A stretch of 64,000 bases of DNA from an uncultured Candidatus Saccharimonadales bacterium (lineage in GTDB: Bacteria > Patescibacteriota > Saccharimonadia > UBA4664), in the NCBI GenBank assembly GCA_964467655.1, contig CAYXSN010000004.1, positions 19,906 to 83,905 of the forward strand, written 5' to 3'. Position numbers and translations under genes: made by a program. This document shows positions 27,359 through 47,860 of this stretch, piece by piece (positions within the stretch are counted from its first letter, which is position 1; every line of letters begins with the position of its first letter). The notes below the pieces were generated by a model. The model had not been told where the DNA came from. It ran no database searches and saw only the letters and a list, made by a program, of their open reading frames with translations.

Positions 27359-28699
27359 CTAGCGGATTTGCTGACTGAGCAGCTCGGGCCATTCCCGGGG
27401 AATGAATGGTTTGTTCGACCCGGAGCTGGCGATTTCTCGCACCGCTTGGTCAAGCTTGACCGATCCACCCAGAGCTTCTTGCTCGCCAATAACAATGGCG
27501 TACGGCACGAGGTCTTCGCGGGCTTGCCTTACCTTTTTACCAACACTGTCGTTACGGTCGTCAATCTCGAGACGCACTGGCTGGCCGGCCAATTTGGCGC
27601 CGAGCTGCCGACACAGATCAACGTACTTGTCACTAACTGGAACGAGCCTGATATGGACGGGATATAGCCAAAGCGGTAGACCATCTGGGAATCGATCGAG
27701 CGCTGCGTACAGGTAACGTTCGATACCACCCGGAATGGCCGAGTGGATGATCACGGGATGACGACTATCGCCCTGCTCATCCACGTACTGGATACCCAAA
27801 CGTGGCGCGTTGCCAACATCAATCTGGATACACGCAATTTCACGCGACTGGCCAAGGGCGTCCATAATCTTGTAATCGACATTGATGATCCAGTAGCGAT
27901 CGGCGCCGTCGTTGATGATACCAGCCAGCACGTCGCGGCCAAGGCTAGCGGCCACCTTTGCGATTTCATCCCGGTATTGTTCCCAGTATTCGGGTGACGA
28001 TACCTCGATACAAACTTCGTAGTCACGGTTCAGTTCTCGACCGCTGGCCAGGATTTGTTCCTGTAGTTTAGGAAACCACTTAAAAGCCTGGGCAACGTCG
28101 CGGAAATACGGGTGAATGTCTGGCATATAAAATCGGCGCTGGCGATACAGCAACATGCATTCGCCGCTTTGCTCAGCGCGGTAGCAGTCGGACAGTGAAA
28201 AGTGCGCAAACGGCAGGTTCTTATAGTTTAGACCATGCTGCTTCGCCAGATTGAACTGCGGGTAGCTCGCGTCGTAGCTCATAACCAGCTGGTTGTTGCC
28301 CGATTTGAACTGATACAGCCGGTCGCCATACAAATGGGCGTAGGCCGCCACGACTGGATGGTCAAGGTTGAATAGGTTTGAACCATTTACTTCATACATG
28401 GGCAAGCCAACAGCGCTCACCAGCTGTCGAGCATAATCTTGAACGAGCCGGCGCATGAGGTTGGCTTTATAGTCGTACTGGACAATACCAATGTCGGCGT
28501 TGGGTTCCCACCCAAAGCCAAGCTTCTTAGCAATCGCTAGATAGGCGGGTTTGCCCTCGGAACCGCGATTGACACCAGCCCGCTGGGCTTCGCGCAGGAC
28601 GAATAATCTAAAACTATCTGAACCTGCGCCTGATTCCAAATAGGCCTCGGCCGAGTTGACCCGGCCATCAGGTCTAATTACGTAATATTGATCTTTCAT
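27359..28699 (-). CDS. class II aminoacyl-tRNA synthetase paralog. It is ThrRS-like (catalytic core plus anticodon-binding domain) and lacks the N-terminal TGS/editing domains
   Basis: 446 aa. Motif-2-like FSLSDCYRAEQSGECMLLYRQRRFYMPDIH. Motif-3-like PVIIHSAIPGGIERYLYAAL (compare ThrRS PVMIHRAILGSMERFIGIL). C-terminal class-IIa anticodon-binding pattern PYAIVIGEQE. Confidence 0.6.
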   Translation of the reverse strand: MKDQYYVIRPDGRVNSAEAYLESGAGSDSFRLFVLREAQRAGVNRGSEGKPAYLAIAKKLGFGWEPNADIGIVQYDYKANLMRRLVQDYARQLVSAVGLPMYEVNGSNLFNLDHPVVAAYAHLYGDRLYQFKSGNNQLVMSYDASYPQFNLAKQHGLNYKNLPFAHFSLSDCYRAEQSGECMLLYRQRRFYMPDIHPYFRDVAQAFKWFPKLQEQILASGRELNRDYEVCIEVSSPEYWEQYRDEIAKVAASLGRDVLAGIINDGADRYWIINVDYKIMDALGQSREIACIQIDVGNAPRLGIQYVDEQGDSRHPVIIHSAIPGGIERYLYAALDRFPDGLPLWLYPVHIRLVPVSDKYVDLCRQLGAKLAGQPVRLEIDDRNDSVGKKVRQAREDLVPYAIVIGEQEALGGSVKLDQAVREIASSGSNKPFIPREWPELLSQQIR

Positions 28700-28769
28700 T
28701 GCAATACTCCATTTAGAATTGGTTGACTCTAGGTGCCGCTCTAAATGAAGTTTTGGGCCGAGATACCAA

Positions 28770-28800
28770 AAACTCCCGCTGCCGGGAGATTTTTAAGCAA
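28770..28800 (-). promoter_or_regulatory. intrinsic terminator hairpin (ctcccggcagcgggag plus T-run) inside the 5' leader of the ThrRS-like gene. Candidate attenuator
   Basis: A predicted promoter TTGACC-N17-TATAAT (plus-strand ggtcaa 28902..28907, attata 28879..28884) lies upstream of this hairpin. The hairpin is therefore about 75 nt 5' of the ATG inside a roughly 170-nt leader. Confidence 0.45.
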
Positions 28801-29021
28801 TCGCAAACTACCGACAGGCTAGAACGTAGCTGTCGCTGTCTCGTTGATAACGATGTAGTTTGATTGAATCATGTTCTAATTATAACACGCTTGTGGTTGA
28901 TGGTCAATTTTTACCAGTTTCGGTTACTAGCTGGTAATACCCTCAGGCGGCTTTACCTGGAACGAGCGATACCAAACCGCCAGCCCATCTCTGATACGGT
29001 TCCAATTCGCGATATGGTAGT

Positions 29022-29041
29022 CTACCAATGCACTTATGCTT
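29022..29041. repeat. direct repeat of the tRNA-Glu 3' end and flank (ctaccaatgcacttatgctt), copy c
   Basis: Matches 26575..26594 (ctaccattgcacttatgctt) and 29708..29727 (ctaccaatacacttatgctt). Confidence 0.75.
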
Positions 29042-29053
29042 AAATGAGAAGCT

Positions 29054-29632
29054 TTAACCGGCTTCTTTTTTAGTGCCCAAATATTTAGCCACTACGACAA
29101 CGGCATTCATCAAGAAAACATAGGCCGGATAGACGAGTAGGATAAACGAGTAGGCCGGAACTGCCACCATGCTGAATAATCCTGCTATCCCCGCCAGCAC
29201 CCACTGTAGGTACACTTCAGTGTCGGGCTGCCGGTAGGCCTTGATTACGGTCGGCAAGGCACCAACTCCGTCAATCGCAACAGCAATGAGTGTAGAATAA
29301 TACGTATCTTGAGAGAATATCCAGTAAGTAAAGAGTAACGCTGCTACCCCGAGAATGATCTGATCAAACCTGGAGCTGCCACCTACTCCTTTGCGCATCG
29401 ATATAATAAAAACGAGCAGAACTAGAGCCGTAGTGCTGCCGAAGAAAAGTGACGACCACCCGCCCCCATTCATAACTTGGTTAACGAACGCGACTAACGT
29501 CAGGATTGACCAAATACCCCACGTAATGCGTTGGGGTTTTACTTTACCCTCGAATATGCCGCGGATGTAGGGGACGTAGCCAATAAAGTTAAGGATTAGG
29601 GCAGTGAAGCCGAAGAATAGTGCTTTGTCCAT
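29054..29632 (-). CDS. integral membrane protein (about 6 TM), hypothetical
   Basis: 192 aa and strongly hydrophobic. It has its own promoter module P2. Confidence 0.55.
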   Translation of the reverse strand: MDKALFFGFTALILNFIGYVPYIRGIFEGKVKPQRITWGIWSILTLVAFVNQVMNGGGWSSLFFGSTTALVLLVFIISMRKGVGGSSRFDQIILGVAALLFTYWIFSQDTYYSTLIAVAIDGVGALPTVIKAYRQPDTEVYLQWVLAGIAGLFSMVAVPAYSFILLVYPAYVFLMNAVVVVAKYLGTKKEAG

Positions 29633-29635
29633 GGG

Positions 29636-29702
29636 GTGATTATAGCCTTAGTCGCCACCATCTGACAACCTCAGTGGCCACTTCGTTCCCAAATGCAGGC
29701 TG
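29636..29702 (-). promoter_or_regulatory. promoter module P2 (minus strand: TTGTCA-N18-TATAAT), near-duplicate of P1
   Basis: Plus-strand attata at 29638..29643 and tgacaa at 29663..29668. The -10 lies 8 nt upstream of the ATG, so the transcript is nearly leaderless. Confidence 0.6.
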
Positions 29703-29707
29703 CAGTG

Positions 29708-29812
29708 CTACCAATACACTTATGCTTATTATAGGACATCGTAAATTCTAGAATAGAATTATCCGAGCTTTGGTAGGCGCACAAAAAGACCCCGAAAGGG
29801 GCCTTTTTGTTT
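29708..29812. repeat. duplicate of the tRNA-Glu 3' end plus downstream flank and terminator (copy b)
   Basis: ctaccaatacacttatgctt ... atccgagctttggtaggcgcacaaaaagaccccgaaaggggcctttttgtt, compared with 26575..26678. Confidence 0.8.
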
Positions 29813-29853
29813 GCTTTCCATTTTGAGACATTGCGATCTGTCTTTTGCCCTAT

Positions 29854-31330
29854 CTATGGATTGGGGTTGGGTATGGATGCATTTTTTGTGCTATCCCAGC
29901 ATTCCGGAAGGATTTCTTTTGTGAAGGCATACTTATTCACATCCGCGCAATTTGGTTCCTGCTGAAGCACCATCGCGAGCTGCCATTGTCCGTTTACTTT
30001 CGCGTAATGAGCGGCGGCCCCGGTTTGGCAGCCCTGGCCGACCGCAGCGAATTGGTCGCGAATAACTTTTGAGATGATGAACGTAGCGTCGGCCCCGGTA
30101 GCCGCGCATCCGGCATACACTTTGTCGTATTCGCCCTTGATATAGGTCTGGAAGTCGGCGGGCGCAGATGAAAGGCCCAAGATATGCTCGTACTTGTCTT
30201 CAGCCTGTGCGGCCGAAAGCGCGAAACCGCCCCGCATTGTAAGGGTACCCACGGGCGTCCCGATTTGACCATATTTTGCCTTTATGGCGCCCGTCTTTGA
30301 GTCTACGAAATCAATCTCGAATTCGTGCTGGTATATAAGTGTCCGGTCGTCAAACTGAGTAACATATTCATCTGAGCTGAATCTTGGTACCGGAATTGTA
30401 CTAGGCCTGGCGTTCTGGCCAATCTTGTCCCCAGGATATGAGAGTATATTCGCCTGGTTTGATGCCTGGTTGATGAAATAGAATGTGTTGCTCGACTGGC
30501 TGAAAGAGACGTAATCGGATGATTGTACCAAGCCGGGTGCGGAAAACTCGGATAGTGTTTTGACGTTACTACCGTCGGCGTTCATTATCATCGGGTGTTC
30601 CGAGACGCCATTGTTTTGGCCGGGTGTGTTTTGCGTGTACGCCCAATAAACAACACGCCCATCCGCAAGCTCGGCCGGGCGTTGATTTTCGTTTGTTTTG
30701 GTGAGCTGAGTGAGTGTATCTGTTGCTAGTGTATAGCGAAAGATTTGCCGGTCAGGTGATTGGTACACCGGCTGCGGCATTATGGTAAGCAGCACGCTTT
30801 TCCCGTCATGCGACCAGGCGTTGCCCCCGTCAGGCCATGAGGGTCCGTTCGCTGTAGCCCCGGTAGGCAGCTTAATCTCTTTTGTGACCTTAAGGTATTT
30901 ATTCAATATCCACAGCGAATTTTGCGTGTTGTCCTTACTCGCTACGGCAAGGAACTGACTGCCGTCTGGGCTTGGAATCATTGTTTTGATTACTTTGCCA
31001 TTGGTTGTTGGCAAGTCATACCGAACTCGGCTGCCTGCTTGATTGATACAGACGAGCTTTGAGAGCCGCACAAAGCAGTAATTTGGCGGGAATTGCTTGC
31101 TAGCCTTTGACGCCAGCTGGGAACTCACATCGGTCTGCTGTGGGCGCTGCTGAAGGTAGATAGCGTAGCCGGCAACCGCGACCATAACAAGCGCGAGAAT
31201 CGATGTTAGTACTAGAGTACCCCGCCTCGATCTATTTGGCTTAGGGCTTTCTTCTGGTGCAATATCGATAGCATCGTTGGCGGTGTTATCGACTTCTGGA
31301 ACCTGTGATGATTTGAGTTCTTGTTTCATT
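29854..31330 (-). CDS. membrane-anchored periplasmic/extracellular protein with a TolB-like beta-propeller domain, hypothetical
   Basis: ATG 31330 (MKQELKSS). One TM helix. WD40-like beta-propeller motifs (SPDGSQFLAVASKDN; WSHDGKSVLL). Visibly lower GC than the flanks. Confidence 0.5.
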
Positions 31331-31532
31331 TTATGGATTTGGGTTGATTTAATCTTAGGCCATTTTGTAGTCTTTGCAAAACCAGAAATCCGTCGGGCTT
31401 TCCGGCTGCTATCATACACCTCGTAGACCGTAACGCCGATGCCTCAACGTATGGCTTCCGGATGAACATCGGTTCCGTTGATAATTTTATAAAATTACCT
31501 TATACTAGGGAGTCGCTAAGGGAGAAACTAAA

Positions 31533-31785: not shown

Positions 31786-32340
31786 CTACCCAACTGATGG
31801 CCAATCTTTGGTTGGGGTCAGATTGAAATACGGCCCCCTGAGTTCAGGGTAGGCGTCCAGTAAGTTCATGATGTTACCCTGCATGGCGAGGGCTTGGTCG
31901 GCTATTGCCTGGGGGTTGTGGTGCCGGCCTTCATGCAAGATGGTGTCGCCGATCATTCTGCCGTGGGCGCAGATGTTGCGGCAGCGCACCCAGTCCTCAA
32001 ACTGCTTCCGGCTGCCCTTGGCCACCCGGGCTGGATCGACCCGCGACAGCACCTTAAAGAGGATGTCGATTTTGGTATTGAGCGAGACGAAACGGTTATC
32101 GAGTATGTCGAACATGAAGGCCAAATAGGAGTTTTGGTAGCCGCCGTCCGGACACCGGGTGTAGTACTCGGCGATATAGGCGTTGATGATGCCTTCGACC
32201 AGGGTGGCCTGGGTAATTACCCGGGCGATGGCGATGTGCGCTGCGACGAGTTGAGTGGTAAAGGGATCAGGTTCCAAGATGGGGCCGCTTCTTGAATACA
32301 GCGAACCAGAACCGTTTTGCGGGGGTTTTGGGATGCTCAT
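31786..32340 (-). CDS. HEPN-like protein (Rx4HG motif: RCRNICAHG)
   Basis: ATG 32340 (MSIPKPP) would overlap the 3' end of the upstream methyltransferase gene by 73 nt. A later start is possible. Low GC. Confidence 0.45.
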   Translation of the reverse strand: MSIPKPPQNGSGSLYSRSGPILEPDPFTTQLVAAHIAIARVITQATLVEGIINAYIAEYYTRCPDGGYQNSYLAFMFDILDNRFVSLNTKIDILFKVLSRVDPARVAKGSRKQFEDWVRCRNICAHGRMIGDTILHEGRHHNPQAIADQALAMQGNIMNLLDAYPELRGPYFNLTPTKDWPSVG

Positions 32341-32923
32341 TTTCAAAAATGTCCACCAGGTTAAAACCTTCACCCAACAGCTCGGTGAGCTGGTTGCGCG
32401 TAAAGAAGTGCGTGAAGACCGTGCTATCTTCGCCCCGGTATGAGCTGGCCGCACTGAAGGCTTTGATGCGCATGAGCCCGCCCGGTTTGAGGACGCGCGT
32501 CACGTTCTTCTGATAGCGCGTCCAATCGTGGGGTTCAATGTGGTGCAGGCAACCGTCATCGTTGACAACGTCAAACGATGCATCTGGATATGGCAACTCC
32601 AAGACGTTCCCGACCCGGAAGTCAATCGTCTTTCCTGGGAGCGAGGCTTGTGCATTATGAATGGCTTGATGGATGGCTGATTCGGCGAAATCGATGCCCG
32701 ATGTTTGGAAGCCACACTGCGCTAGGGCGATGGTGTATCGGCCGCCGCCGCAGCCCAGGTCAAGGGCCGTGCCGGTGACGTGATTTTGGCGCAGGTAAGC
32801 GGTGAACTTGGCGAAATCCGGCGCTGGGACGGTTGTCTTCCAGCCGGTGTCGCCAAGCTCGGTGGCCAGCTGCACGCCCGACCACTCGTTTTCGTACAGG
32901 TCGCGCTGGTGGTTGCTGCTCAT
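32267..32923 (-). CDS. class I SAM-dependent methyltransferase (TehB/TPMT-like)
   Basis: 218 aa. Motif I LDLGCGGGR, followed by an acidic motif II and motif III. Confidence 0.7.
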   Translation of the reverse strand: MSSNHQRDLYENEWSGVQLATELGDTGWKTTVPAPDFAKFTAYLRQNHVTGTALDLGCGGGRYTIALAQCGFQTSGIDFAESAIHQAIHNAQASLPGKTIDFRVGNVLELPYPDASFDVVNDDGCLHHIEPHDWTRYQKNVTRVLKPGGLMRIKAFSAASSYRGEDSTVFTHFFTRNQLTELLGEGFNLVDIFENEHPKTPAKRFWFAVFKKRPHLGT

Positions 32924-32953: not shown

Positions 32954-33232
32954 CTAGCGATCGAACTCTGTCAGCTCGGTAATCTCGTTGCTGGCCACCA
33001 TGATGGTGGGGCCGGGCTGGCCGGTGGAGGCTTGCGTCACCACGATGTGGGTCTGCGATTCGAAAATTGCCAAAATAGTGTAGCGCGGGTGGGCTGGATG
33101 GGCCGCTCCCACCTCGATCGCTACGATCCGCTTATCGTGAACATACTTCAAACTGCGGATGCGCTTGGGCGTGATGGCAGTCCGCAATTGTTCACGAGCA
33201 GTTTTGCTGAGCAGCTCAGGCCAATGATGCAC
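32954..33232 (-). CDS. small hypothetical protein
   Basis: 92 aa. GTG start that overlaps the stop of the response-regulator gene by 1 nt. Confidence 0.3.
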   Translation of the reverse strand: MHHWPELLSKTAREQLRTAITPKRIRSLKYVHDKRIVAIEVGAAHPAHPRYTILAIFESQTHIVVTQASTGQPGPTIMVASNEITELTEFDR

Positions 33233-33669
33233 TAGGCGGCGGTTTTGTCCGCGGGAGCGATGCCGAGCTTTTGCTGGATCATATCGAGTACTTCGCGCGG
33301 CGTGTAATCAGCCTTCACCAAGTAGTCGGCGCCGTAGCTTTGGGCTGTTTTCTTGTCATCGGGGTTTGATGAGTTGGTCAGCACCATGACAGGCATGGTC
33401 GAAAAATCGAAGTTGTCGCCAGCAAGCGCGCCGAGTAACTCAAGGCCTGTGAGCTCAGGCATGTTGATATCTAGCAATAGTAGATTGGGCGCACTCGTCT
33501 TGATAGCCTCGTAGGCGTCGCGGCCATTGGCTTTGACGACCACCCGTAAGCCGGCACTTTCGAGTTTGATTTGGTACATGCGCGAGATAAACGGATCATC
33601 CTCGGCGACGAGTACTGCTTTGCGGTTATCGCTGGGAGCGCTGGGATTGAGATTTGGTTGGACGGCCAT
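33232..33669 (-). CDS. single-domain response regulator (CheY-like receiver)
   Basis: ATG 33669 with a strong RBS AGGAGGAAATC. Receiver motifs VLVAEDD, LLLLDINMP, MVLT, K. Confidence 0.8.
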   Translation of the reverse strand: MAVQPNLNPSAPSDNRKAVLVAEDDPFISRMYQIKLESAGLRVVVKANGRDAYEAIKTSAPNLLLLDINMPELTGLELLGALAGDNFDFSTMPVMVLTNSSNPDDKKTAQSYGADYLVKADYTPREVLDMIQQKLGIAPADKTAA

Positions 33670-35809
33670 GATTTCCTCCTTGCTTGATGGGCTTGGCTGC
33701 GGTAGCGGGTAAATCAAACCCAAAGATTGACCCTTTGCCTTCAGTGCTGCTAAAGATGAGGGTTCCTCCTTGATCTTCTACCACTCGCTTCGCTAAGTAA
33801 AGTCCCAATCCTGTACCATCTGGTCGGACACCTTGGGCGTTCTCGGCCCGAAAGAACTTGCTAAACAGCTTGGCCTGAGCGGTCCGAGGAACCCCAATGC
33901 CAGTGTCGTGCACTTCAAAGTGAACCGACTTGGGCGTACGGCTCAGCAGCACTCGCACTTCACCGCTGGGAGTGTAGAAGATGGCGTTATCAATAAAGTT
34001 CATGATCACTTGGCGGGTTTTGTTGTCATCGACATTGATGAGTGGCCATGGCTCGGCCGGCGGCTCGAAGATGAGTGAGAGTTTTTTGGTCTCGGCATGC
34101 GAGCGCAACTGGCGCACTTCATCGCCCACCATCTTGACGAAGTCGGTGGGAGTGGGCTGGATGATAAATCGTCCCGCCGATAGCCGCGAGACGTTGAGTA
34201 AGTCAGAAATGAGATTAACCATGCGCTGGCTGGCATCAAAACCGTAGCCAACGAATTGGCTCTGCATGGGCGAGAGCTTGCCGGCATCACCCTCCTGGAG
34301 CATCGACAAATACCCCTTGATGGTCGTCAACGGCGTGCGTAACTGGTGGGAGGCCATGGAGATGAATTCATCCTTTGCCTGGTCAAGTTCTTTGAGGTGA
34401 CGATTGGCCACCCGCAGGCGCTTGGTAGCGTGCTCTACCCGACCCTGCAGGGTGACGTTGAATTCCTTGATTTCAGCGAAAGCTTTGGCGTTTTGCAAGG
34501 CAACCGCTAGTTGACGACTCATGATTTCGAGAACTTTGATATCTTGGTCAGAATAGACGTCACCTGACAGCTTGTCGCCAATGAGTAAGTAACCGATAAA
34601 ATCTTCGCTGGTCCGCAACATCGTACTGACACGCAGGTCGTGATGCTCGAGGATTTCCTTGCGCTTGCCACCTTCCAATTCGTCGGCAATGATCATCGAC
34701 TGATTGAGCTGGATGAGTTCGGGTGCCACCATGAGCCGTTTGGGGAGCACGCCATAGTGTTCTACGCGGTAGACCCGGTCGTGATTGAACACGACGATCT
34801 GGGCATAAGCGATGTGCATTGACTCACACAACGTGGTGAGCGAGCGCTTGAGCAGCCGATCCAGGTCAATCTCGCTGACGAGAATCTTCGAGAACGCGTT
34901 GAGAACTTCTTGGGAGTCGTAATGCTGGCGATAAAAAACGCTGTTTGTTAGTCGTTCGAACACCCGACGGAGTGGCTGAAATGCAAATAATGAGATGACG
35001 GCCATTAGGCTGTATGGCCAGCTAGCATCGGCGGCTGATGTGCCCTCCTGAAACACATACCTTGAGCTGGCAATAAAAAGTACCCCAAAACTCAAAGCCA
35101 AAGTGCCCAACAGCATTACATACATCACCGTCCGGGCAATCACTGCCCGAATGTCAAAGAGCCGGGTTTTGATGACGGCATAGGCAATCGACACTAGATA
35201 AACGAGTGTAAATATCGGGCCAAGATAGACGTATTTATAGTTGCCAAATATGACCGGCAGTATCAGATTAAACAGTAGTCCCATTACAACCGCCACCGAC
35301 ATACCAAGCAGGATGAGTTGTATCTGGAGTTTCTGTATGCCCCTGAGCTTAAAAAGTGATCGGAAGAGCGACATCAAGCCGATACTGAACAGCACTGCTA
35401 ATACAATGCCAAATATGCGCACTCCTGATACGGTAATAATTTCACGGTTGTTTGTCACACCCGTTGCACACATGCCAGGAATAGCAGCGATGATAGAGAA
35501 TGCTATCCCGGCTACTACGATTATCTTGTCGGGCACGACTCGAATTCGGGAAAATGAAGCGTTAAACAGCGCAAAGAAAGTGGCTGTCAGCATGGCGCCC
35601 GTATAGCTGATTAATGCCGTGGCAAATGTGTACTCAATTGGTACAATCCGAAATAAGCCATTTGTAAATGTCCATGTAGCTACTCCAACGGTCAGGCCAA
35701 GGTAATAACGAAATGTGGTGCTTTTCGTATTTCTCAGAAAGATCGATAGGCCCAAAATAAGGTTGGAGGCCGCGGCGATGAATAATAATACACTCGGCAG
35801 GTCTACCAT
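33626..35809 (-). CDS. sensor histidine kinase (multi-TM N-terminal sensor, HisKA H-box, HATPase_c)
   Basis: 727 aa. About 8 N-terminal TM helices. H-box SHQLRTPLT. N/G boxes (NAIFYT, HDTGIGVP, GTGLGLYLAK). Confidence 0.85.
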   Translation of the reverse strand: MVDLPSVLLFIAAASNLILGLSIFLRNTKSTTFRYYLGLTVGVATWTFTNGLFRIVPIEYTFATALISYTGAMLTATFFALFNASFSRIRVVPDKIIVVAGIAFSIIAAIPGMCATGVTNNREIITVSGVRIFGIVLAVLFSIGLMSLFRSLFKLRGIQKLQIQLILLGMSVAVVMGLLFNLILPVIFGNYKYVYLGPIFTLVYLVSIAYAVIKTRLFDIRAVIARTVMYVMLLGTLALSFGVLFIASSRYVFQEGTSAADASWPYSLMAVISLFAFQPLRRVFERLTNSVFYRQHYDSQEVLNAFSKILVSEIDLDRLLKRSLTTLCESMHIAYAQIVVFNHDRVYRVEHYGVLPKRLMVAPELIQLNQSMIIADELEGGKRKEILEHHDLRVSTMLRTSEDFIGYLLIGDKLSGDVYSDQDIKVLEIMSRQLAVALQNAKAFAEIKEFNVTLQGRVEHATKRLRVANRHLKELDQAKDEFISMASHQLRTPLTTIKGYLSMLQEGDAGKLSPMQSQFVGYGFDASQRMVNLISDLLNVSRLSAGRFIIQPTPTDFVKMVGDEVRQLRSHAETKKLSLIFEPPAEPWPLINVDDNKTRQVIMNFIDNAIFYTPSGEVRVLLSRTPKSVHFEVHDTGIGVPRTAQAKLFSKFFRAENAQGVRPDGTGLGLYLAKRVVEDQGGTLIFSSTEGKGSIFGFDLPATAAKPIKQGGNHGRPTKSQSQRSQR

Positions 35810-35828: not shown

Positions 35829-36521
35829 TTATGGTTTGATTAATAGCCGTTTTGTGCGGTTGAACTTGATATAACGCATTGGGGCCAAAAGACGAAGCCG
35901 GGCCCGAGCAGTTGGCAGATGGATCATTGCCAGATGTGTCGTTTTACCATCGGGCGTAGTGCCACGACCAATTTCCTTAACAGGCAATAATAGCTGGAAC
36001 CGAAGGCCTTTCAAGAGAATGGGTGTGGTCACGAAATACCATGTGGTAAGCATTGGCTGAGCCAGTTCGGAACGGCCATAGACGAGCCGATATAGATTCA
36101 CCAGGACGGTTTTGAGTCTGCGTTTGTCTTTGCCGATCCACTCCATATCAATAATTAACCTAGAGATATCGGCAGCATTGTGGCGCGGATAATCATGTCC
36201 GTCATGTAGTAGATTGCTAAAGTATTTGCGGCTCATGGTGCTCGACGGAGCATTATCTGGTGTAAGCCGACAGTAACCAACAAGGACCGATTCACTGAAC
36301 ACGCCAAAATGATATGAGTATGTATCAAACTCATCTGATTCTGTGCGAGTGATCGGATCACCACTAACCCAGTGCATTTTTTGCACACAAATCTTATAAC
36401 GAAAGTTATAAGCCGCAACCAGGTCCTGATATGAGCTTAATTCCCGATATACGAGCTGACCCTTGGTGAAACCAATAGTGTCTGCGGTGGCGTCTAGGGC
36501 GCCTAAGGGTACGCTTGGCAT
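35829..36521 (-). CDS. GNAT-like N-acyltransferase of the acyl-homoserine-lactone-synthase/OlsB superfamily (putative aminolipid N-acyltransferase)
   Basis: Start chosen at ATG 36521. Motif FRYKICVQKMHWV (compare R..VF....GW in LuxI/OlsB-type). Divergent to a PlsC-like gene. Confidence 0.5.
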   Translation of the reverse strand: MPSVPLGALDATADTIGFTKGQLVYRELSSYQDLVAAYNFRYKICVQKMHWVSGDPITRTESDEFDTYSYHFGVFSESVLVGYCRLTPDNAPSSTMSRKYFSNLLHDGHDYPRHNAADISRLIIDMEWIGKDKRRLKTVLVNLYRLVYGRSELAQPMLTTWYFVTTPILLKGLRFQLLLPVKEIGRGTTPDGKTTHLAMIHLPTARARLRLLAPMRYIKFNRTKRLLIKP

Positions 36522-36583
36522 TGACTGTATATTGACACCTGGACAATTATGTGTCAACATGTTCTTGGATTATTTTACCCTAT

Positions 36584-37249
36584 ATGCAAGCGCTCGACAC
36601 AGTCATTACGGAATCGCGCAGGAGCTGGCTAGACAACAAAAACTCGCAGCGCATCATTTTTGCGTGGCAACGAGTTATCTTTTGGACATTTTATACGCTT
36701 GGCCCCATTTGGCGGCGCAGCTTGGTGAATGAGCTGACCGAGGCTGATGTCGTGCATGGCACCCGTTATGTGGTGGCCGGTAATCATCAACGGGCCATTG
36801 ATCCGTTTTATATCTGTACTCAAATTCCCTACCGTATTTGGCGGCATATGGGTACGCTCAACTACTTTACGGCTAATAAATTTATGGACACACCGGTAGT
36901 CGGTAAAGCCTTGCTGCGTTTTGGCTGCTTTCCGGCCAAGGTTCATCACAAATACCCATTTGGACTCGACTATGCCCACCGGATGCTAGCTCGTGGTAAT
37001 ACCATCCTGATCTTTCCCGAGGGTCGGCGGACGCGTCCTGGCGAAACTCCTGCCCGTAAGGGCGTTCAAGTGCTGGCGCACGAGCCGAATGTCATGGTGA
37101 TCCCAGCACACATAGAATGGACGAAGCGCTGGTTTGGCTATACGTTTAAACTGGGTATTGGCAAGCCATTTGATGCGAGTAGTCTGTCGGCACAAGAAAT
37201 CCTGGATCGGGTATATGCGCAACCTGTTGAAGTTGTTGATCAGAACTGA
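36584..37249 (+). CDS. PlsC-family lysolipid acyltransferase (OlsA-like)
   Basis: HX4D motif NHQRAID and FPEGRRTRPGE (FPEGTR-like). Start ATG 36584; the listed ORF begins at 36551. Confidence 0.7.
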   Translation: MQALDTVITESRRSWLDNKNSQRIIFAWQRVIFWTFYTLGPIWRRSLVNELTEADVVHGTRYVVAGNHQRAIDPFYICTQIPYRIWRHMGTLNYFTANKFMDTPVVGKALLRFGCFPAKVHHKYPFGLDYAHRMLARGNTILIFPEGRRTRPGETPARKGVQVLAHEPNVMVIPAHIEWTKRWFGYTFKLGIGKPFDASSLSAQEILDRVYAQPVEVVDQN

Positions 37250-37307
37250 CGCTTTTTCTTGCCTTTTTCGGCAGCATCGGGTACACTTTCTTGACGGGTT
37301 ATCCTAA

Positions 37308-38534
37308 ATGTTGTACTTCAAGAATTCTGAACTCACCAAAACCTATAAAGTAGCACTCAATACCGTCCTTGGCTGGATTAAGGCGGCTCAAAACGGCAAG
37401 CTCGACCTCGGACTCGTTAAGGTCAACGAGCGCTATTATATTGCCAACACTGCCAAGAACGTCGCCGTCTTGGGCCAGCTCGTGGAAGAGCGCAAGAAAT
37501 ACCGCAACAGCCGGAATGCCCGCGTCACCACGCCGCTGCCTAAGTTTTATGAGCTTTTTACTCAAACTCAGCTGCTCGATATTATCTCGAGCCTCGATAT
37601 CCATCATGAGATCCCCTTCCAGTACAGCTATTTTGACGGCGGAGCTGATGTCTGGAACGATTACGCCAACCGTATGGTGAGTGATCCAGCGCCCAATCTG
37701 TTGACGCGTACTATCAAGCTATTAGAGCTGAATGGTACTTATCTTGATGAACTATTTGCCCCATACGAGAAAGTTAATCTCGTTGATCTGGGTCCTGGTA
37801 ATGGTTTGCCGGTGAAGGAACTGCTCGGCAAACTGCTCGAGCAGGGTATTTTGCATAAGTATATTGCCCTCGATATCAGTCCGACGATCCTTGAAAACAC
37901 TCGGGCCAACATTAAAACCTGGTTTGGTGATGACAGTTTCGTCGAGGGCCACGTCGTAGACTTAACCCAAGACAGGTTTGGTCATTTATTGGTAGACCCC
38001 CGTGTCGAAGAGGGCAAATTGATTAATTTGGTCGTATTTCTCGGTGGCACCATTTCGAACTTCCGTAATCCAGATGATGTATTGAATATTGTTCATCATA
38101 GCCTTGGCCGGAACGATATCTTTGCCTATTCGCGCAAGCTCGACACAGCCCAGAGTCGTCGCTTTTTTGACTTCAGTAGTAAGCCCGGCCATGCCGCACT
38201 GTCCGAGATTCACAGGATGATGCCGGAGCTCCTCAATATTGATCCTAATTGTTACGAAGTGGAAATGGGTTATGACGGCGTTAAGAATCAGCGGTACATC
38301 CAGATTCGCTTGAAGCAGGCGACGAGATTGGATTTCCACCTCGGTGGAAGTACTCGCTCAGTGAGTTTAGAGAAGGGTGACGCCCTCTTGATCTGGCGGG
38401 CACGGCAGATCAATTCGGTTCAGGTGTTGCAACAATTGATTTCGAACGGCTTTTATCCGCTGCACATTAGTCAGACCAGCGATAAAGAATATATCGTGAC
38501 AATCTCCCGCATCCAGACTGAAACCGACTCATAG
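37308..38534 (+). CDS. EgtD-like SAM-dependent N-methyltransferase (Methyltransf_33 family) with an approximately 100-aa N-terminal extension
   Basis: LVDLGPGNGLPVKELLGKLL...YIALDISPTILENT resembles EgtD (ELGSG..K...LL ... Y.P.D.S). Low GC. Confidence 0.5.
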   Translation: MLYFKNSELTKTYKVALNTVLGWIKAAQNGKLDLGLVKVNERYYIANTAKNVAVLGQLVEERKKYRNSRNARVTTPLPKFYELFTQTQLLDIISSLDIHHEIPFQYSYFDGGADVWNDYANRMVSDPAPNLLTRTIKLLELNGTYLDELFAPYEKVNLVDLGPGNGLPVKELLGKLLEQGILHKYIALDISPTILENTRANIKTWFGDDSFVEGHVVDLTQDRFGHLLVDPRVEEGKLINLVVFLGGTISNFRNPDDVLNIVHHSLGRNDIFAYSRKLDTAQSRRFFDFSSKPGHAALSEIHRMMPELLNIDPNCYEVEMGYDGVKNQRYIQIRLKQATRLDFHLGGSTRSVSLEKGDALLIWRARQINSVQVLQQLISNGFYPLHISQTSDKEYIVTISRIQTETDS

Positions 38535-38759: not shown

Positions 38760-39146
38760 ATGAGTAACGCTAAGATTAAGATTGCGATTATTGAAGACGA
38801 TGCTGCTATCGTTCAGATGTATCAGACTAAGTTTGAGAATGAAGGCTATGAAGTACAGACTGCCGGCGATGGCGTAGCCGGACTGCAGCTGCTGGCCGAT
38901 TTTTTGCCCGATGTCGTTTTGCTCGACCTGATGATGCCCAATATGAACGGCCTCGATATGTTGAGTAAGTTGCGCAATGCTCCGGGTGGCCGTGAAGTGC
39001 GAGTCATTGTGCTTACCAACATGGGCGACACTGAGACGGCAACGAAGGTGTATAAAATGGCGGCCGATGATTATATCGTCAAAGCCGAAATGACGCCGTC
39101 TGAAGTGCTGGGCCGTGTGAAGGAACTGTTGTCAAAGTCCCGGTAG
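38760..39146 (+). CDS. single-domain response regulator (CheY-like), paralog of the 33232..33669 gene
   Basis: ATG 38760 (MSNAKIKIAIIEDD). AT-rich promoter region upstream. Followed by hairpins at 39160..39218. Confidence 0.8.
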   Translation: MSNAKIKIAIIEDDAAIVQMYQTKFENEGYEVQTAGDGVAGLQLLADFLPDVVLLDLMMPNMNGLDMLSKLRNAPGGREVRVIVLTNMGDTETATKVYKMAADDYIVKAEMTPSEVLGRVKELLSKSR

Positions 39147-39204: not shown

Positions 39205-39879
39205 CTAGCGGAGCATGTCTTTGCGTTCGGCGCCTATACCGAACTGGCGCGAACTGAGTCGTGGCCGGGCGGGCACGCGGCACGTATCGCCGTCGACAGT
39301 GCCGCCCAATATGACTTGGCACTCCTCGGTCGTGACGTCCGAAGCCTTCACCAGCTTAGTGGTGTGATTGCTCACGGGCTCGCCGCGGACCGGGTCGACC
39401 AGCAGCTTGCTGACGCTGGGCGTCTCTCCCTCCAGACCCCTGAGATGGCAGAGCCTGGTGGCGTCAACGTTGGTCTGCTGCCGCTGGCTGAACGAGTAGC
39501 TCACCTGACCCAGGGGAGGTTCGATGATGCCGCGGGCCTGTGCCAGTTTCTGGCATTCGGCGGTAGTTACACCCGACGGCTTATCGTCGAAGTAACTACT
39601 CAACCAGAAGAGGTTACCCAGTAGCAAGACCACGATGGCAATGGCCGCAATGGCCGCAAAGGCAGCCCTCAGGAAGAGCAGCTCAATGAGCCAGGCCAAG
39701 CCCTTCAGTACCAGCCGCAGCAGTTTGAAGGGCGCCTTGATGAGCGCCAGGGGCAGCCGCCAGATGGCAAACCGAGCCAGACGGCCGAGCTGCTTGGCGA
39801 GGCTGAGCCACGCCAAGAACAGGAGGGCGAGGGCATAGTCCCGCGCGATCCTGAGATTACGCATGAACTTGCGCCACAT
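39205..39879 (-). CDS. membrane protein with a Cys-containing extracytoplasmic domain, hypothetical
   Basis: 224 aa. Two TM segments, then a soluble domain. Confidence 0.45.
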   Translation of the reverse strand: MWRKFMRNLRIARDYALALLFLAWLSLAKQLGRLARFAIWRLPLALIKAPFKLLRLVLKGLAWLIELLFLRAAFAAIAAIAIVVLLLGNLFWLSSYFDDKPSGVTTAECQKLAQARGIIEPPLGQVSYSFSQRQQTNVDATRLCHLRGLEGETPSVSKLLVDPVRGEPVSNHTTKLVKASDVTTEECQVILGGTVDGDTCRVPARPRLSSRQFGIGAERKDMLR

Positions 39880-44656: not shown

Positions 44657-45775
44657 CTAGAGCTCACTGCCAACGGCTTCACCGATGGTGCCGTAGCCAT
44701 CTTGGTCGAGCAACTTGACCAGACCGTTATTGATCTGGCCGACTACTTGGGGTCCTTGATAGATCAACCCCGTGATCATTTCAACCAGGTTGGCACCCAG
44801 CTTGATCTTCTGGTAGGCATCGGCGGCCGAGAACACCCCACCGACACCAATGATGACAAACCGGTCTTCAAAATGGCGGCGCGTTTGGGCAATGAGCCGG
44901 TTGGAGCGCTCAAAAGTAGGCCGGCCACTGAGTTTGCCCTTGACGTGTTCAGGCAGGTGGGATTTGAGTTTGACCTGGTTGCGGTACGCAAGGTTGGCAA
45001 TGGTCAGGGCCGCCACTTCATGCTTGGCCGCCACTTCGGCCAATGCCCTAAACTTGGGCCAATCGAGGTGGTTGGGCATTTTGATACACAGCGGCAGTTG
45101 CAACTTGAGCTCGTCGGTGGCCGCCAGCAGGGCCTCGAGCAATTCCGGCGTGGTAAAAGGCTGGCCGCCATAGGTGTTGGGGCAGGAGATATTGAGGGTG
45201 ACGAGCTGGCCAACCCCTGACTCCTGAATCAGCTTGAGGCTACCAATGTAGTCGGCCACGGCGGTTTCGGTAGTGCAGGCCTCAGGTGAGTTGGTTTTGG
45301 CAACCGAAATGTTGAGCGGGAAATCGGCTGGCAGGTGCTGGGACTGCAGGCGGGCGATTACGCGACGAGCACCATGATTGGCCAGACCGGCGTTGACTAC
45401 CAAGCTGTGGTCAGCAGGCAAACGGTAGAACCACGGCTTGGGGTTGCCGCGGCAGACTTCGTAGGTAATGGAGCCGCCTTCCATGAAGCCGAAACCGACC
45501 GCGTGCATCAACCTGACCAGTTCAAAGTTTTTGTCGAGACCGGCGGATAGTCCGAGGGGATTGGCGAAATGGAGGCCGAGGACATTTTGACTGAGCCGTG
45601 GGTCATGATAAGCCCACGAAGCTGTCATCAGCGCCCTTAAGGGAGCGATTTTTTGGACCTGGCGGCCACTCGCCACCATGTGGTGGTGGGCCCTGTCGGG
45701 TGTCAGTCGAAAGAGCAGTGGTTTGGCGAGGTACCGGTAACCTTTGGTGGTCAGAGTGGCGAGAACGGCCTTCAT
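44657..45775 (-). CDS. pyrD: dihydroorotate dehydrogenase (quinone), class 2
   Basis: 372 aa. N-terminal membrane-association extension. Conserved DHODH-2 pattern (GLDKNFE, NISCPNT, GGV). Confidence 0.85.
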   Translation of the reverse strand: MKAVLATLTTKGYRYLAKPLLFRLTPDRAHHHMVASGRQVQKIAPLRALMTASWAYHDPRLSQNVLGLHFANPLGLSAGLDKNFELVRLMHAVGFGFMEGGSITYEVCRGNPKPWFYRLPADHSLVVNAGLANHGARRVIARLQSQHLPADFPLNISVAKTNSPEACTTETAVADYIGSLKLIQESGVGQLVTLNISCPNTYGGQPFTTPELLEALLAATDELKLQLPLCIKMPNHLDWPKFRALAEVAAKHEVAALTIANLAYRNQVKLKSHLPEHVKGKLSGRPTFERSNRLIAQTRRHFEDRFVIIGVGGVFSAADAYQKIKLGANLVEMITGLIYQGPQVVGQINNGLVKLLDQDGYGTIGEAVGSEL

Positions 45776-46515
45776 TCTTTCATTATACGCTCGGCAGCCA
45801 CAATCACTCTTTGGGTGAATGTGCCTTTGCTTTCGTCGAAGGTGCCGGCGCAGGTAATCAGGTTGAGTTGGGAGGTAACATTGGGTAGCTTGTCGTATAA
45901 ATGTTTGGTGGCTTCGGCGAGTACGTAGGTGGTCGTAGTTTTGACCTTAAATTGCCGCCGGCTGCCGTCGCCATATTCAATCGCAAACTCTTGGCCCGGC
46001 ACAGCGTCAGCTAAATGGGCGAAAATTCCTGGGCCATAGGCGCCTTGCAGGTGGCCGTCAAGCACTGCCACACCTTCTTCGCCGGGCCGCGGACCATCAA
46101 CGTACCAACCGGCCAAGTAAATATTGGTGGGCACTGCCATGGAGCCATCGGGCAGTCGACCGACTTTCTGGATGAAACCTTTGGCGTGAATGTTGGGCAT
46201 GTCTAATAGTCTTGGTTGGTCGGCTGGCACTGTGTACGCGACATCAGGCTTGATCGGGGTCTCATCGGGGCGGCCTATGGGTTGGGTAACGGTTTGGGCG
46301 GTGGCAGGTAAGACGTGAGCAATAGGAGTGTGAGTGACCCGGTAGCGCGTCCACCAACCCCACGTCGCGTACAAGCCAAGCAGCGCACCGACGGCTAATA
46401 TTGCCAAGCTGACGCGCTGACGACTGCCCACGGCTACACCGCGCTGGCGCTGATATCTAAAGTTGGGCGACTTAAAGCTTTTCACTCGGACGGCGGAACC
46501 GGTTGGCCAGAACAA
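45772..46515 (-). CDS. sortase (cysteine transpeptidase)
   Basis: TM anchor and catalytic LITC(AGTF) near the C-terminus. The start codon is uncertain (TTG 46515 or GTG 46488). Confidence 0.75.
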   Translation of the reverse strand: MFWPTGSAVRVKSFKSPNFRYQRQRGVAVGSRQRVSLAILAVGALLGLYATWGWWTRYRVTHTPIAHVLPATAQTVTQPIGRPDETPIKPDVAYTVPADQPRLLDMPNIHAKGFIQKVGRLPDGSMAVPTNIYLAGWYVDGPRPGEEGVAVLDGHLQGAYGPGIFAHLADAVPGQEFAIEYGDGSRRQFKVKTTTTYVLAEATKHLYDKLPNVTSQLNLITCAGTFDESKGTFTQRVIVAAERIMKE

Positions 46516-47860
46516 AGAGCAAGCCGCTCACCACAGCCGCCAGGGTGAAGCCAAGCATTGGTTGACCAGGAAGGCCGGTGCCGGGCGCGCTGGCGCCGAG
46601 GACGCCAGAGAGGTCGATGGCAACCGTGTCTGAGTCCGTGGGGTCAGCATTGGCATTATCGGCGACCGAGACACTGGCGGTGGTGGTGAGGCTTGAAGCC
46701 GCCGCTTTAGACACTTTGGCGAGCACCGTGACGACCGGCGAGCTGGTGCCGGCGGCTAAGACGTCGCCGCGCTGGCAGGACACGGTCTGGGCGTTGACCG
46801 TGCAGGTCCAGCCGTCGCCGGCTGCCGACTGTGGGACGAGGCCTTCGGGCAGTGCCTGAGTCAGACTGTAGCCGGCTTGAGTGTTCTCGGCGTCAGCAGC
46901 ATTGGTGGCGCGAAGTGTAAACTGGCCATTGCCGCCGGCGTTCAACGTACCGTTGTGGGCAATGTCAACCGAGACGTTTGGTTGGTTGGTGTTGATAACG
47001 AGACCCTTGATCTCGTGAGTGTTGGTCTGGTCGCCGGTGGAGGCCGCAAAGCCAAATTTGAAGCTGGCAGGCAGTGTGCCGGCACCGTTGATGGTTGTCA
47101 GGTTGATGTTCGACAATTCAGTGACGTAACCGCTGCCATAGTTGACGGCCACTGTCATGATGTTGCCGGTGCTGATGCTGATGCGCACCTGGCGTTTGGC
47201 GCTGCTGCGGTCGGCAGCCATGAGCGGGCCGGTGGCCACTTTGCCCGTGACATACTGGTAACCTGTGGCTTCTGAGCCTCGGATGACGACACTGTTGGGT
47301 GTGCGGCCGATGCCACCGGTGCCATGGTCATTGCCCGAGAAGTTACCAAAGCTATCAAAACCGACCCCCACGTAGCCACCTTCGATGCCCGGGTCAGCCG
47401 AATCGCTGGAGTAACCAAGCGAGCCACCAAAAGCACCTGGGGCGCTTGGGTTGGCTGATCCGTCAATGAGGAAGAACGCCACGCCATCGGCACCGTTACC
47501 ACCATACTGATACATGTCGAAGTTAATGCTTAAGCCCTGTCCTGAAGGAATGGCTGTGTTGTAAATGGCGTAGCCCGAGCGGAACTGGGCGGTAGGCGTG
47601 AGGCGCAAGTACCCTTGACCATCGGCGTCGAGAGGTCCGCCAGCGCAGGCTGGTACTGATCCGGCCGCGGCGGACGGTGCAGCCGTCAAACAGGCCTCGG
47701 ATCCGCCTCCGCCACCGCTGAGCCAGGCGCCCGCCGGTGTACTCGTTCCGGTAAACGTTTCTCCGGCCAATGGCGCGGCTAGAGCTGAACTACTTAGCAC
47801 CGGCAAAGCTGCCACGAGTGTGGCTGCCACGGCCTTGCGGATTGGTTTTGCAAACAGCAT
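46472..47860 (-). CDS. cell-surface protein: signal peptide, L-type (legume-like) lectin domain, DUF11-like Ig repeat, C-terminal sorting signal (hydrophobic helix plus RFRRP tail)
   Basis: ATG 47860 with a gggagg RBS. ADGVAFFLIDG...GGSLGYSS and VGVGFDSFGN resemble the legume lectin signature. C-terminus ...APGTGLPGQPMLGFTLAAVVSGLLFVLANRFRRP. Confidence 0.6.
   Translation of the reverse strand: MLFAKPIRKAVAATLVAALPVLSSSALAAPLAGETFTGTSTPAGAWLSGGGGGSEACLTAAPSAAAGSVPACAGGPLDADGQGYLRLTPTAQFRSGYAIYNTAIPSGQGLSINFDMYQYGGNGADGVAFFLIDGSANPSAPGAFGGSLGYSSDSADPGIEGGYVGVGFDSFGNFSGNDHGTGGIGRTPNSVVIRGSEATGYQYVTGKVATGPLMAADRSSAKRQVRISISTGNIMTVAVNYGSGYVTELSNINLTTINGAGTLPASFKFGFAASTGDQTNTHEIKGLVINTNQPNVSVDIAHNGTLNAGGNGQFTLRATNAADAENTQAGYSLTQALPEGLVPQSAAGDGWTCTVNAQTVSCQRGDVLAAGTSSPVVTVLAKVSKAAASSLTTTASVSVADNANADPTDSDTVAIDLSGVLGASAPGTGLPGQPMLGFTLAAVVSGLLFVLANRFRRPSEKL

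Follow-up and report, generated by a model that had tools for sequence, protein, structure and literature searches.

A predicted N-acyl synthase co-varies with the sensor half of a neighbouring histidine kinase in soil-type Saccharibacteria: a possible make-and-sense cassette

Introduction

In the LuxM/LuxN, AinS/AinR and CqsA/CqsS circuits, a histidine kinase encoded next to an autoinducer synthase reads the product of that synthase. In the staphylococci, the agr specificity groups are set by a hypervariable AgrB-AgrD-AgrC sensor segment. To our knowledge, hardly any signalling or lipid chemistry has been defined by experiment in the Saccharibacteria and other members of the candidate phyla radiation (CPR), which are ultrasmall epibionts. 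The locus described here lies in a 64,000-nucleotide stretch of contig CAYXSN010000004.1 (hereafter the window), which comes from a soil-type Saccharibacteria (TM7, CPR) genome of the class Saccharimonadia. It encodes a GNAT-superfamily enzyme predicted to be an N-acyl synthase, a histidine kinase with a seven-transmembrane-helix (7TM) sensor half, a PlsC-family acyltransferase (AT), an EgtD-fold methyltransferase (MT) and two response regulators (RR1 and RR2). The nearest complete genome bearing this block is CP064960.1 (1.32 Mb).

The adjacency of LuxI-like genes and kinases in the CPR is already on record in silico, because Bernard et al. described CPR homologues of LuxI, including some from Saccharibacteria (e.g., OGL33891.1), 18 of which lie beside sensory kinases and were proposed as candidate quorum-sensing systems (Bernard et al., 2020; PMC7567580). 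The same study also lists PlsC-like 'HdtS' homologues. The Lqs system (LqsA/LqsS) is covered elsewhere (PMC8023197). For ornithine lipids, three routes of synthesis and a PEMT-like N-methyltransferase, OlsG, have been described, none of them with an EgtD-fold enzyme or from the CPR (PMC12971839). No experimental study of aminolipids or of N-acyl synthases from Saccharibacteria came up in a literature search.

Overall, a circuit that makes and senses a fatty signal or a surface lipid seems to fit the locus better than a plain pathway for ornithine lipids. Specifically, the locus may be a cassette of a synthase and its cognate sensor for an N-acylated amine, with AT, MT and a Nudix hydrolase as tailoring enzymes and MacB-type export where such a pump is present. 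This reading is tentative, and we regard it as slightly short of an even call.

Conservation of the synthase-kinase-receiver unit

The GNAT, the 7TM kinase and a receiver, encoded in that order, form an invariant unit over about 12 lineages. This core is found in window/L001, L002-5/L074, L006, L088, L099 and L102/L103; in L096 a partial open reading frame (ORF) with about 40% identity to the kinases follows the GNAT gene, and in L097 RR2 is directly divergent to it. In the window, the kinase (727 aa in all, 33626-35809 on the minus strand, with 7TM, HisKA and HATPase regions) and RR1 are co-directional with the GNAT gene, and the gap between GNAT and kinase is 19 bp. Operon boundaries throughout were taken from gene spacing alone. 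The full order, with the kinase and RR1 read away from GNAT on one side and AT, MT, in some cases a Nudix hydrolase, and RR2 read away on the other side, beside FolD, occurs at five sites, namely the window, L002-5/L074 (GNAT 67% identical), L006 (50%), L088 (50%) and, in part, L007. L088 was the one new full locus yielded by a metagenome scan with a seven-sequence alignment. In four lineages (L096, L097, L099 and L102/L103) AT and MT are absent while the core is retained. Because these distant GNAT members lack AT and MT, the constant unit is the synthase, kinase and receiver, and AT and MT are accessory to it. The first-pass annotation had treated GNAT, AT and MT as one module; as a conserved unit this trio does not hold up, since the GNAT, kinase and receiver persist without the other two genes.

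The variants of the block differ in their export and tailoring genes. A MacB_PCD/FtsX and ABC_tran pair lies directly upstream of GNAT in L102/L103 and L006, and in L006 this MacB-type ABC pump is inserted, together with a second GNAT paralogue, between AT and GNAT. L094 carries an AdoMet decarboxylase and, in the GNAT slot, a different protein of 233 aa (Autoind_synth, 5e-4). The slot is filled in L092 by a 242-aa FeeM-like protein (3e-5), with a UbiE-like methyltransferase as the next gene of the kinase operon; L092 has no EgtD-like gene between AT and Nudix, and an AdoHcy hydrolase adjoins. An inserted GDSL lipase is carried by a variant on a JGI contig. A Nudix hydrolase follows MT in sister lineages; in the window, no Nudix remnant was found in the 225-bp gap between MT and RR2, and a search of the window found no extra copies of the block genes.

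Co-variation of the synthase and the sensor half

The identity of the GNAT between lineages tracks that of the sensor half of the kinase and not that of its catalytic half. Among the pairwise identities of eight lineages (28 pairs, which are phylogenetically non-independent), the Spearman correlation of GNAT identity was 0.91 with the 7TM sensor half and 0.03 with the cytoplasmic half. The cytoplasmic half (residue 276 to the end) is 69-91% identical among six block-type lineages with any type of synthase. The 7TM half (residues 1-275), with 6-7 hydrophobic segments in residues 7-247, is in the window 78, 53 and 49% identical to that of lineages with the same GNAT type but just 22-30% identical to that of L094 and L092, which carry other synthases (15-21% identity). 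In these two lineages, other members of the superfamily occupy the GNAT slot together with replaced sensor halves. In pairs matched for cytoplasmic identity (78-82%), the sensor halves share 59% identity for a common GNAT type (L006-L088) and 24-25% for different ones (L006-L094). The switch in identity within the kinase is sharp and falls at about residue 275. Because the synthase and the sensor half co-vary with each other and not with the catalytic half, and because the switch is so sharp, the two appear from these alignments to behave as a single exchangeable cassette.

The rest of the block forms a more conserved frame. RR1 is 62-84% identical across block-bearing lineages and possesses no output domain, and for RR2 the range across lineages is 73-92%. 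Between the window and L002, CydA (87%) and CydB (82%) give the genomic background, against which the frame genes are 84-92% identical, the GNAT is 67% identical, the sensor half dips to 54-60% and MT reaches 48%, with DNA that is not alignable. The only hyper-divergent regions in this comparison are the GNAT, the sensor half, MT and a membrane protein, hyp224, encoded between RR2 and FolD. A recent transfer of the whole block, considered because the kinase, AT and receivers looked anomalously conserved relative to L002, was rejected, as the frame matches the CydA/CydB background. The first-pass annotation had also taken the AT-rich composition of the block as a hint of acquisition. Acquisition is not shown by the comparison of lineages: several of them keep the block in synteny, with FolD on one side and the kinase side on the other, and its frame is conserved like CydAB, with only the GNAT, sensor half and MT hyper-divergent.

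Co-variation would be predicted equally well if the sensor and the enzyme both recognised a foreign compound. In such a detoxification or resistance module, the kinase would sense an incoming amine compound, e.g., from an actinobacterial host, the GNAT would N-acylate it and the ABC pump would remove it. GNATs often act in resistance, and MacB-type ABC pumps do occur in the operon. Additionally, Bce-like sensor/pump resistance modules have been noted in Saccharibacteria (PMC7567580). In contrast, the characterised members of the LuxI/FeeM structural class are all biosynthetic long-chain acyl transferases, the resistance-type profiles were without match, and PADLOC returned no meaningful defence system, just generic methyltransferase and ATPase matches. 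We consider a resistance module very improbable.

The GNAT as a predicted long-chain N-acyl synthase

Judged by its profile matches and modelled fold, the GNAT belongs to the LuxI/FeeM/OlsB class of long-chain N-acyl synthases, in which the acceptor would be S-adenosylmethionine (SAM), an amino acid or another amine. In Pfam it matches Acetyltransf_5 (PF13444) with E=6.6e-7 and 30.4 bits, against a gathering score of 22.4, over residues 54-141 only. Its match to FeeM is weaker, and no match to Autoind_synth (PF00765) was found at E<=0.1. In NCBIfam the best match is the exosortase-associated (PEP-CTERM) acyltransferase (1e-10), and the TraI acyl-homoserine lactone (AHL) synthase is matched at 4e-6; all of these scores are far under the curated cut-offs, with the two TraI models at 26.6 and 22.5 bits vs 292 and 250. 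A tblastn search against plasmids gave marginal matches only (E>=0.06); annotated AHL synthases coincided with two of these, and olsB with none. The Acetyltransf_5 similarity, whose absence would have spoken against the OlsB-like call of the first-pass annotation, is present. The GNAT is not nearer to the OlsB type than to the LuxI/FeeM groups in a comparison with general Pfam and NCBIfam profiles and PDB entries, among which was no OlsB structure or OlsB-specific profile.

An exhaustive profile search for relatives returned just 7 cluster representatives below 1e-30 and 352 below 1e-3. Across 66 relatives, Acetyltransf_5 is matched by 63, FeeM by 49 and Autoind_synth by 46. Residues R54, D76, D79 and R98 are invariant in this set, and W64, E74, S133 and R134, at least 90% conserved, align to TofI and to conserved positions of the LuxI family; the LuxI-family Phe position is a Cys in the window GNAT. 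These hallmark residues are non-discriminating, because they are common in sister N-acyl synthases too. The AlphaFold2 (AF2) model of the GNAT (pLDDT 89) is predicted to adopt the LuxI fold. In a structural search with it, AHL synthases rank first, including the CoA-dependent BjaI, RpaI and MesI, followed by FeeM at 16.6, with ordinary GNATs at 14.1 or below. By sequence, the family profiles match AHL synthases only among PDB entries (A3, 1e-19; A5, 9e-4). The real start of the protein is likely M14, because a homologue of about 50% identity, P0003, begins at that residue and the model is disordered over residues 1-20.

These matches bear on a second possibility, namely that the locus is a true AHL system in which the GNAT is a LuxI-type enzyme using SAM and acyl-CoA and the 7TM kinase is a LuxN-like AHL receptor. 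The structural ranking, the PDB profile matches, the share of relatives with Autoind_synth and the conserved hallmark pattern all favour such a system, as do the SAM-related genes adjoining variants (AdoMet decarboxylase in L094 and AdoHcy hydrolase in L092), and the same proposal was made for the CPR homologues of LuxI (Bernard et al., 2020; PMC7567580). In contrast, the window GNAT itself lacks an Autoind_synth match and scores less than a tenth of the TraI cut-off of 292 bits, its best profile match is to the exosortase-associated N-acyl amino acid synthase group, and the fold cannot separate SAM from an amino-acid acceptor. An AHL system in the strict sense seems very unlikely. No LuxR-type gene was found in the region of the window that was scanned, and a histidine kinase adjoins the GNAT instead.

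Some remote relatives of the GNAT (P0126, P0180, P0193 and P0263) are fusions with AMPK1_CBM, ThiF or class I methyltransferases. The fusion to AMPK1_CBM, a glycogen-binding domain, is rich in Ser and Pro and looks eukaryotic.

The acyltransferase

AT matches PF01553 (E=4.1e-14), and the HX4D and FPEGxR motifs noted in the first-pass annotation are present in its translation as NHQRAID and FPEGRR. Otherwise it matches only generic AGPAT profiles, far under their NCBIfam cut-offs. Only 21 homologues were detected; those named or checked by contig are from Saccharimonadia, and all of the checked ones come from block-bearing contigs. Because its homologues are so few and so placed, AT appears unlike the general PlsC of the class. 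It adjoins the synthase slot in the window, L002-5/L074, L088, L094, L092 and the P0128 contig, and is nearby in L006. Its coupling to synthase type is inconsistent, because the AT of L094 is divergent (40-46%), as are the synthase and sensor there, but the AT of L092 is 78% identical to that of L088 despite a different synthase.

The methyltransferase

MT matches Methyltransf_33 (PF10017) with E=1.6e-14 and 54 bits over residues 92-399, and its AF2 model (pLDDT 89) has EgtD (4pio) as the best PDB match (Foldseek E=1e-19, TM 0.81, 17% identity). Residues ~72-408 form the two-domain EgtD fold. They are preceded by a helix-helix-hairpin-helix module of ~65 residues that resembles a winged helix-turn-helix (HTH) and is kept family-wide, so that the description of MT as EgtD-like with an N-terminal extension was apt. 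The asparagine of the EgtD GSTIGN motif is conserved as N251 in GGTISN, and the AYDD/Y206 region aligns to RRFFDF; both are presumed histidine-binding positions of EgtD. Against the EgtD equivalog TIGR03438, MT scores 38.6 bits, with a cut-off of 290.9, over residues 145-273 only, and no egtB, egtC or egtE neighbours were found in the window or in the block-bearing loci. By these sequence criteria, MT is not an EgtD orthologue.

The MT family (~408 aa with the extension) occupies at least 265 loci in GTDB species genomes and is often multi-copy. Hundreds of its members are full-length, almost all from metagenome-assembled genomes (MAGs) of Candidatus Saccharimonadia, with others in Streptomyces, Nocardia and Plantactinospora. 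Most copies lie elsewhere than in the block, either between PcrA/UvrD and TpiA-Pgk or behind small divergent ORFs of no known family, and those near MT paralogues (clusters c1, c2, c4, c14, c19 and c36) gave no Pfam match. AT is beside MT in only two (L074 and L007) of 79 kept MT loci. Copies linked to the block group in a single clade of two subtypes, and the subtype swaps independently of GNAT type.

Several observations nevertheless argue for a functional link between methylation and the synthase. AT and MT are adjacent, with a gap of 59-110 bp, in at least six lineages down to about 50% identity. In L092 and L011 a UbiE-like/Methyltransf_11 methyltransferase is part of the synthase-kinase operon, and the EgtD-like MT is absent or elsewhere. 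Methyltransf_11-GNAT fusions occur among distant GNAT relatives. Lastly, two gene runs join an EgtD-like MT to a 7TM kinase: in L031, MT, an LPG_synthase_C-like gene, an Autoind_synth-like GNAT, ThiF, a nitroreductase-like gene and the kinase are co-directional, and in L022, MT is followed by two LPG_synthase_C-like genes, three unknown ORFs and the kinase. Of the proposal that GNAT, AT and MT form an aminolipid module, the methylation link thus gains some comparative support from the MT clade, the replacement methyltransferases and the fusions.

In its full form, that proposal holds that two steps like those of OlsB and OlsA yield an acyloxyacyl aminolipid, which the EgtD-like MT converts by N-methylation into a betaine-like lipid, with the two-component system only regulating membrane remodelling. 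The GNAT passes Acetyltransf_5, and AT, with its PlsC motifs, is head-to-head to it in the window, L002-5/L074, L088 and the P0128 contig and lies beside the variant synthases of L094 and L092. The AT subfamily is tiny and tied in all checked cases to block-bearing contigs, some methyltransferase recurs, LPG_synthase_C-like homologues of lipid-aminoacylation enzymes follow MT in L022 and L031, and a GDSL lipase is inserted in one variant. In contrast, four lineages keep the core without AT or MT, the co-variation of synthase type and sensor half is left without a reason, the GNAT is nearest to AHL synthases among solved structures, and MT subtype swaps independently of it. The chemistry is also awkward. 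The group methylated by EgtD-type enzymes is a free alpha-amine beside a carboxylate, and in an N-alpha-acyl aminolipid it would be blocked. Likewise, the 3-hydroxyacyl-ACP used by OlsB presupposes type II fatty-acid synthesis, which Saccharibacteria are generally considered to lack. The known ornithine-lipid N-methyltransferase, OlsG, is PEMT-like and not EgtD-like (PMC12971839). We regard such a pathway as unlikely; if it were real, it would be the first aminolipid pathway in the CPR and would bring a second, unrelated type of aminolipid N-methyltransferase.

A simpler arrangement, in which the genes are mere neighbours, would leave the GNAT, kinase and receiver as one unit, AT as a lysophospholipid acyltransferase for salvaged host lipids and MT as a copy of a promiscuous family, with no common pathway. 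The multi-copy MT family with its mostly unrelated contexts, the loss of AT and MT in four lineages and the uncoupling of MT subtype from GNAT type are all as this arrangement predicts. The adjacency of AT and MT over at least six lineages with a monophyletic MT clade, the few AT homologues, all of those checked from block-bearing contigs, and the recurrence of methyltransferases by non-orthologous replacement speak against it, and we rate mere neighbourhood as decidedly unlikely.

The wider MT family showed some further features. Actinobacterial loci (L010, L015, L035, L055, L058, L079 and L081) and those of Saccharimonadia (e.g., L008, L024, L027, L032 and L053) have the same small divergent ORFs preceding MT (~position 8001), of ~100 aa (beta-rich), ~85 aa (Cys-rich) and ~150-230 aa, none with a Pfam match. 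The MT module seems to be common to actinobacterial hosts and their epibionts. MT pairs in tandem or within 2 kb occur in L030, L041, L043, L045, L052, L054, L067, L078, L082 and L085, and several MAGs carry at least three copies on separate contigs, an unusual paralogue load for genomes of ~1 Mb. A stand-alone LPG_synthase_C gene (DUF2156, aminoacyl-lipid synthase-like) comes directly after the EgtD-like MT in L022 (9304-11165) and L031 (7094-8053), and L041 has two copies 3' of its second MT. In L034, L040, L042 and L043 (about 4-7.4 kb, minus strand), the PcrA/UvrD upstream of MT is ~1100 aa long vs ~730 aa, and the insertion, which starts with CLVEG and ends with VHNS, looks in sequence like an intein.

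Proposed mechanism and its significance

In the mechanism that we propose for a make-and-sense cassette, the GNAT would transfer an acyl group from a thioester to the nitrogen of an amine, which would be an amino acid or a compound like SAM, as the LuxI/FeeM fold and conserved residues of the enzyme suggest. The lipophilic product would stay in the membrane or be exported, and in some lineages the co-encoded MacB-type ABC pump may export it. The seven-helix input domain of the co-transcribed kinase would recognise the product, and the kinase would then phosphorylate the receiver-only regulators. AT and MT, with Nudix in sister lineages, would be accessory and would probably O-acylate and N-methylate the product or its precursor. 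The synthase and sensor half would constitute an exchangeable specificity cassette within a conserved frame comprising the catalytic half of the kinase, the receivers and, in most cases, AT.

Several points weigh against this mechanism. Linkage alone could produce co-variation of adjacent DNA segments, the 28 pairs are not independent of one another by descent, and membrane domains usually evolve faster than catalytic domains. The GNAT passes Acetyltransf_5 only narrowly and lacks an Autoind_synth match, RR1 and RR2 are without an output domain, and the link of AT and MT to the core comes from adjacency within one subclade. The source of the acyl group is a further difficulty, because the Saccharibacteria are generally considered to be without fatty-acid synthesis.

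A more elaborate form of the make-and-sense cassette can be imagined, although we think it somewhat unlikely. Soil Saccharibacteria would possess a recombining, pherotype-like cassette whose synthase and 7TM half are swapped jointly, with at least three types, giving private lipidic signals that are acylated and methylated, exported by MacB-type pumps and used among epibionts or with actinobacterial hosts. If the cassette is real, it would be a case of a small-molecule synthase and a matched membrane receptor diversifying jointly, and it would offer a handle on self and host sensing, on the acyl donors used despite absent fatty-acid synthesis and on whether agr-like specificity groups exist beyond peptide signalling. 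The enzymes would also be candidates for making new N-acyl, possibly methylated, amine lipids.

Gene layout, base composition and neighbouring genes

The features of the locus are collected in Table 1. The three ORFs of the first-pass annotation are where it placed them, its domain assignments were correct for all three, and the two-component neighbours that it mentioned are borne out, with the kinase and RR1 beside GNAT and RR2 past MT. A scan for promoters and terminators found a promoter-like match at 36521-36550 on the plus strand, but site counts were not above those in shuffled sequence. An Rfam scan of the window found one tRNA, outside the block.

Table 1. Positions of the synthase-kinase block and its divergent partner genes in the window
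Feature	Position	Strand	Remarks
RR1, receiver-only response regulator, 145 aa as called	33232..33669	-	Pfam Response_reg 1.3e-19; final gene of GNAT-kinase operon
Histidine kinase, cytoplasmic part, residues ~276-727 (weak GAF-like region, HisKA, HATPase_c)	33626..34984	-	HisKA 1e-18, HATPase_c 4e-22
Histidine kinase, N-terminal 7TM sensor half, residues 1-~275	34985..35809	-	HisKA_7TM 1.5e-6
LuxI/FeeM/OlsB-superfamily GNAT, predicted N-acyl synthase, 243-aa ORF	35829..36560	-	Probable start M14 at 36521, giving 230 aa
Short divergent intergenic region between GNAT and acyltransferase	36522..36583		Presumed site of a bidirectional promoter, from sequence
PlsC/LPLAT-family acyltransferase (AT), 221 aa	36584..37249	+	PF01553 4e-14; HX4D, FPEGRR; called start ATG 36584
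EgtD-fold methyltransferase (MT) with winged-HTH-like N-terminus	37308..38534	+	PF10017
RR2, receiver-only response regulator, 3' of MT	38760..39146	+	Response_reg 8.6e-25

The block is lower in GC than its flanks, as the first annotation had remarked, and the low-GC stretch (~34.7-38.9 kb) exceeds the trio and takes in the 5' third of the kinase gene. The GC content is 0.472 for GNAT (GC3 0.47), 0.483 for MT, 0.511 for AT and 0.457 for the kinase sensor half, and 0.56-0.62 (GC3 0.65-0.80) for the flanking genes. The lowest values fall on the variable segments, i.e., the sensor half, GNAT and MT. Three more low-GC islands are present in the window. The first (7487-12464, minus strand, ~0.485) contains a 1300-aa ORF without a Pfam match beside GT1 and GT2 glycosyltransferases, the second (28000-31419) contains ORFs of 192 and 521 aa, neither with a Pfam match, and the third (54911-56059) encodes a Fic/DOC-family protein.

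The membrane protein hyp224 (39205-39879, minus strand, 224 aa) has no Pfam match and is only 38% identical to its L002 counterpart, with neighbouring genes at 70-92%; its GC3 of 0.80 is the highest of the region. On the other side of the block, a 92-aa ORF (32954-33232) and a class I methyltransferase (32267-32923; Methyltransf_25/11, TPMT-like) follow RR1 on its own minus strand in the window lineage only, where L002-5 hold PadR and PspC genes. Further away (45772-48055, minus strand), a sortase gene overlaps the end of a gene for a 527-aa protein with a legume-lectin-like domain, possibly a sortase-anchored surface lectin of the epibiont.

Comparison with known systems

The locus shares features with the ornithine-lipid enzymes OlsB/OlsA and their relatives (GlsB/GlsA and the glutamine- and lysine-lipid variants), in which an Acetyltransf_5-superfamily GNAT also adjoins a PlsC-family O-acyltransferase with HX4D. 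In contrast to these, the genes here are divergent and not in one operon, four lineages have no AT beside GNAT, and the host is probably without 3-hydroxyacyl-ACP. The GNAT also shows no specific likeness to OlsB, and the kinase with which it is co-transcribed has a sensor that varies along with it. MT resembles EgtD in its two-domain fold, SAM motif and GxTxxN asparagine but differs in its extra winged-HTH-like N-terminus and in having no egtB, egtC or egtE genes nearby. OlsG provides a precedent for methylation of an aminolipid head group; it is PEMT-like, with a fold unrelated to that of MT.

Among N-acyl synthases, the LuxI-type AHL synthases (LasI, TofI and EsaI, and the CoA-dependent BjaI, RpaI and MesI) differ from the window GNAT, which is under the Pfam and NCBIfam thresholds for them, has no LuxR-type gene in the scanned region around it and belongs to a Gram-positive-like CPR bacterium. 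FeeM and the long-chain N-acyl amino acid synthases, including TIGR03694, have cut-offs far above the scores of the window GNAT, which is without exosortase context; a kinase partner is not characteristic of those synthases. In arrangement, the locus resembles LuxM/LuxN, AinS/AinR, CqsA/CqsS and LqsA/LqsS, where a synthase gene also lies beside that of a multi-helix membrane histidine kinase with a phosphorelay to receivers, although reading of the product by the kinase is here only proposed. A synthase and a polytopic kinase that are encoded together, in conserved order and co-varying, are common to the window locus and to autoinducer circuits. The synthases of the known pairs are of the LuxM family or the PLP-dependent CqsA type, unlike the LuxI/FeeM-fold GNAT with its HisKA_7TM kinase. 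In staphylococcal agr, too, a signal-producing gene and a membrane sensor half diverge and exchange jointly while the catalytic half of the kinase is conserved, but the agr signal is a peptide made via the protease-like AgrB, and the enzyme here is a predicted acyltransferase.

The pairs of Bernard et al. (2020; PMC7567580) embody the same idea in the same phylum-level group and are likened here by description. Their account is one of adjacency and does not extend to co-variation, cassette types, an operon of AT, MT, Nudix and receiver, or exporter variants. The apparent novelty lies, then, in the way the synthase and the sensor half vary together like a cassette, in the existence of distinct types, in the conservation of an operon with AT, MT, in some cases Nudix, and a receiver, and in the variants of exporter and tailoring genes.

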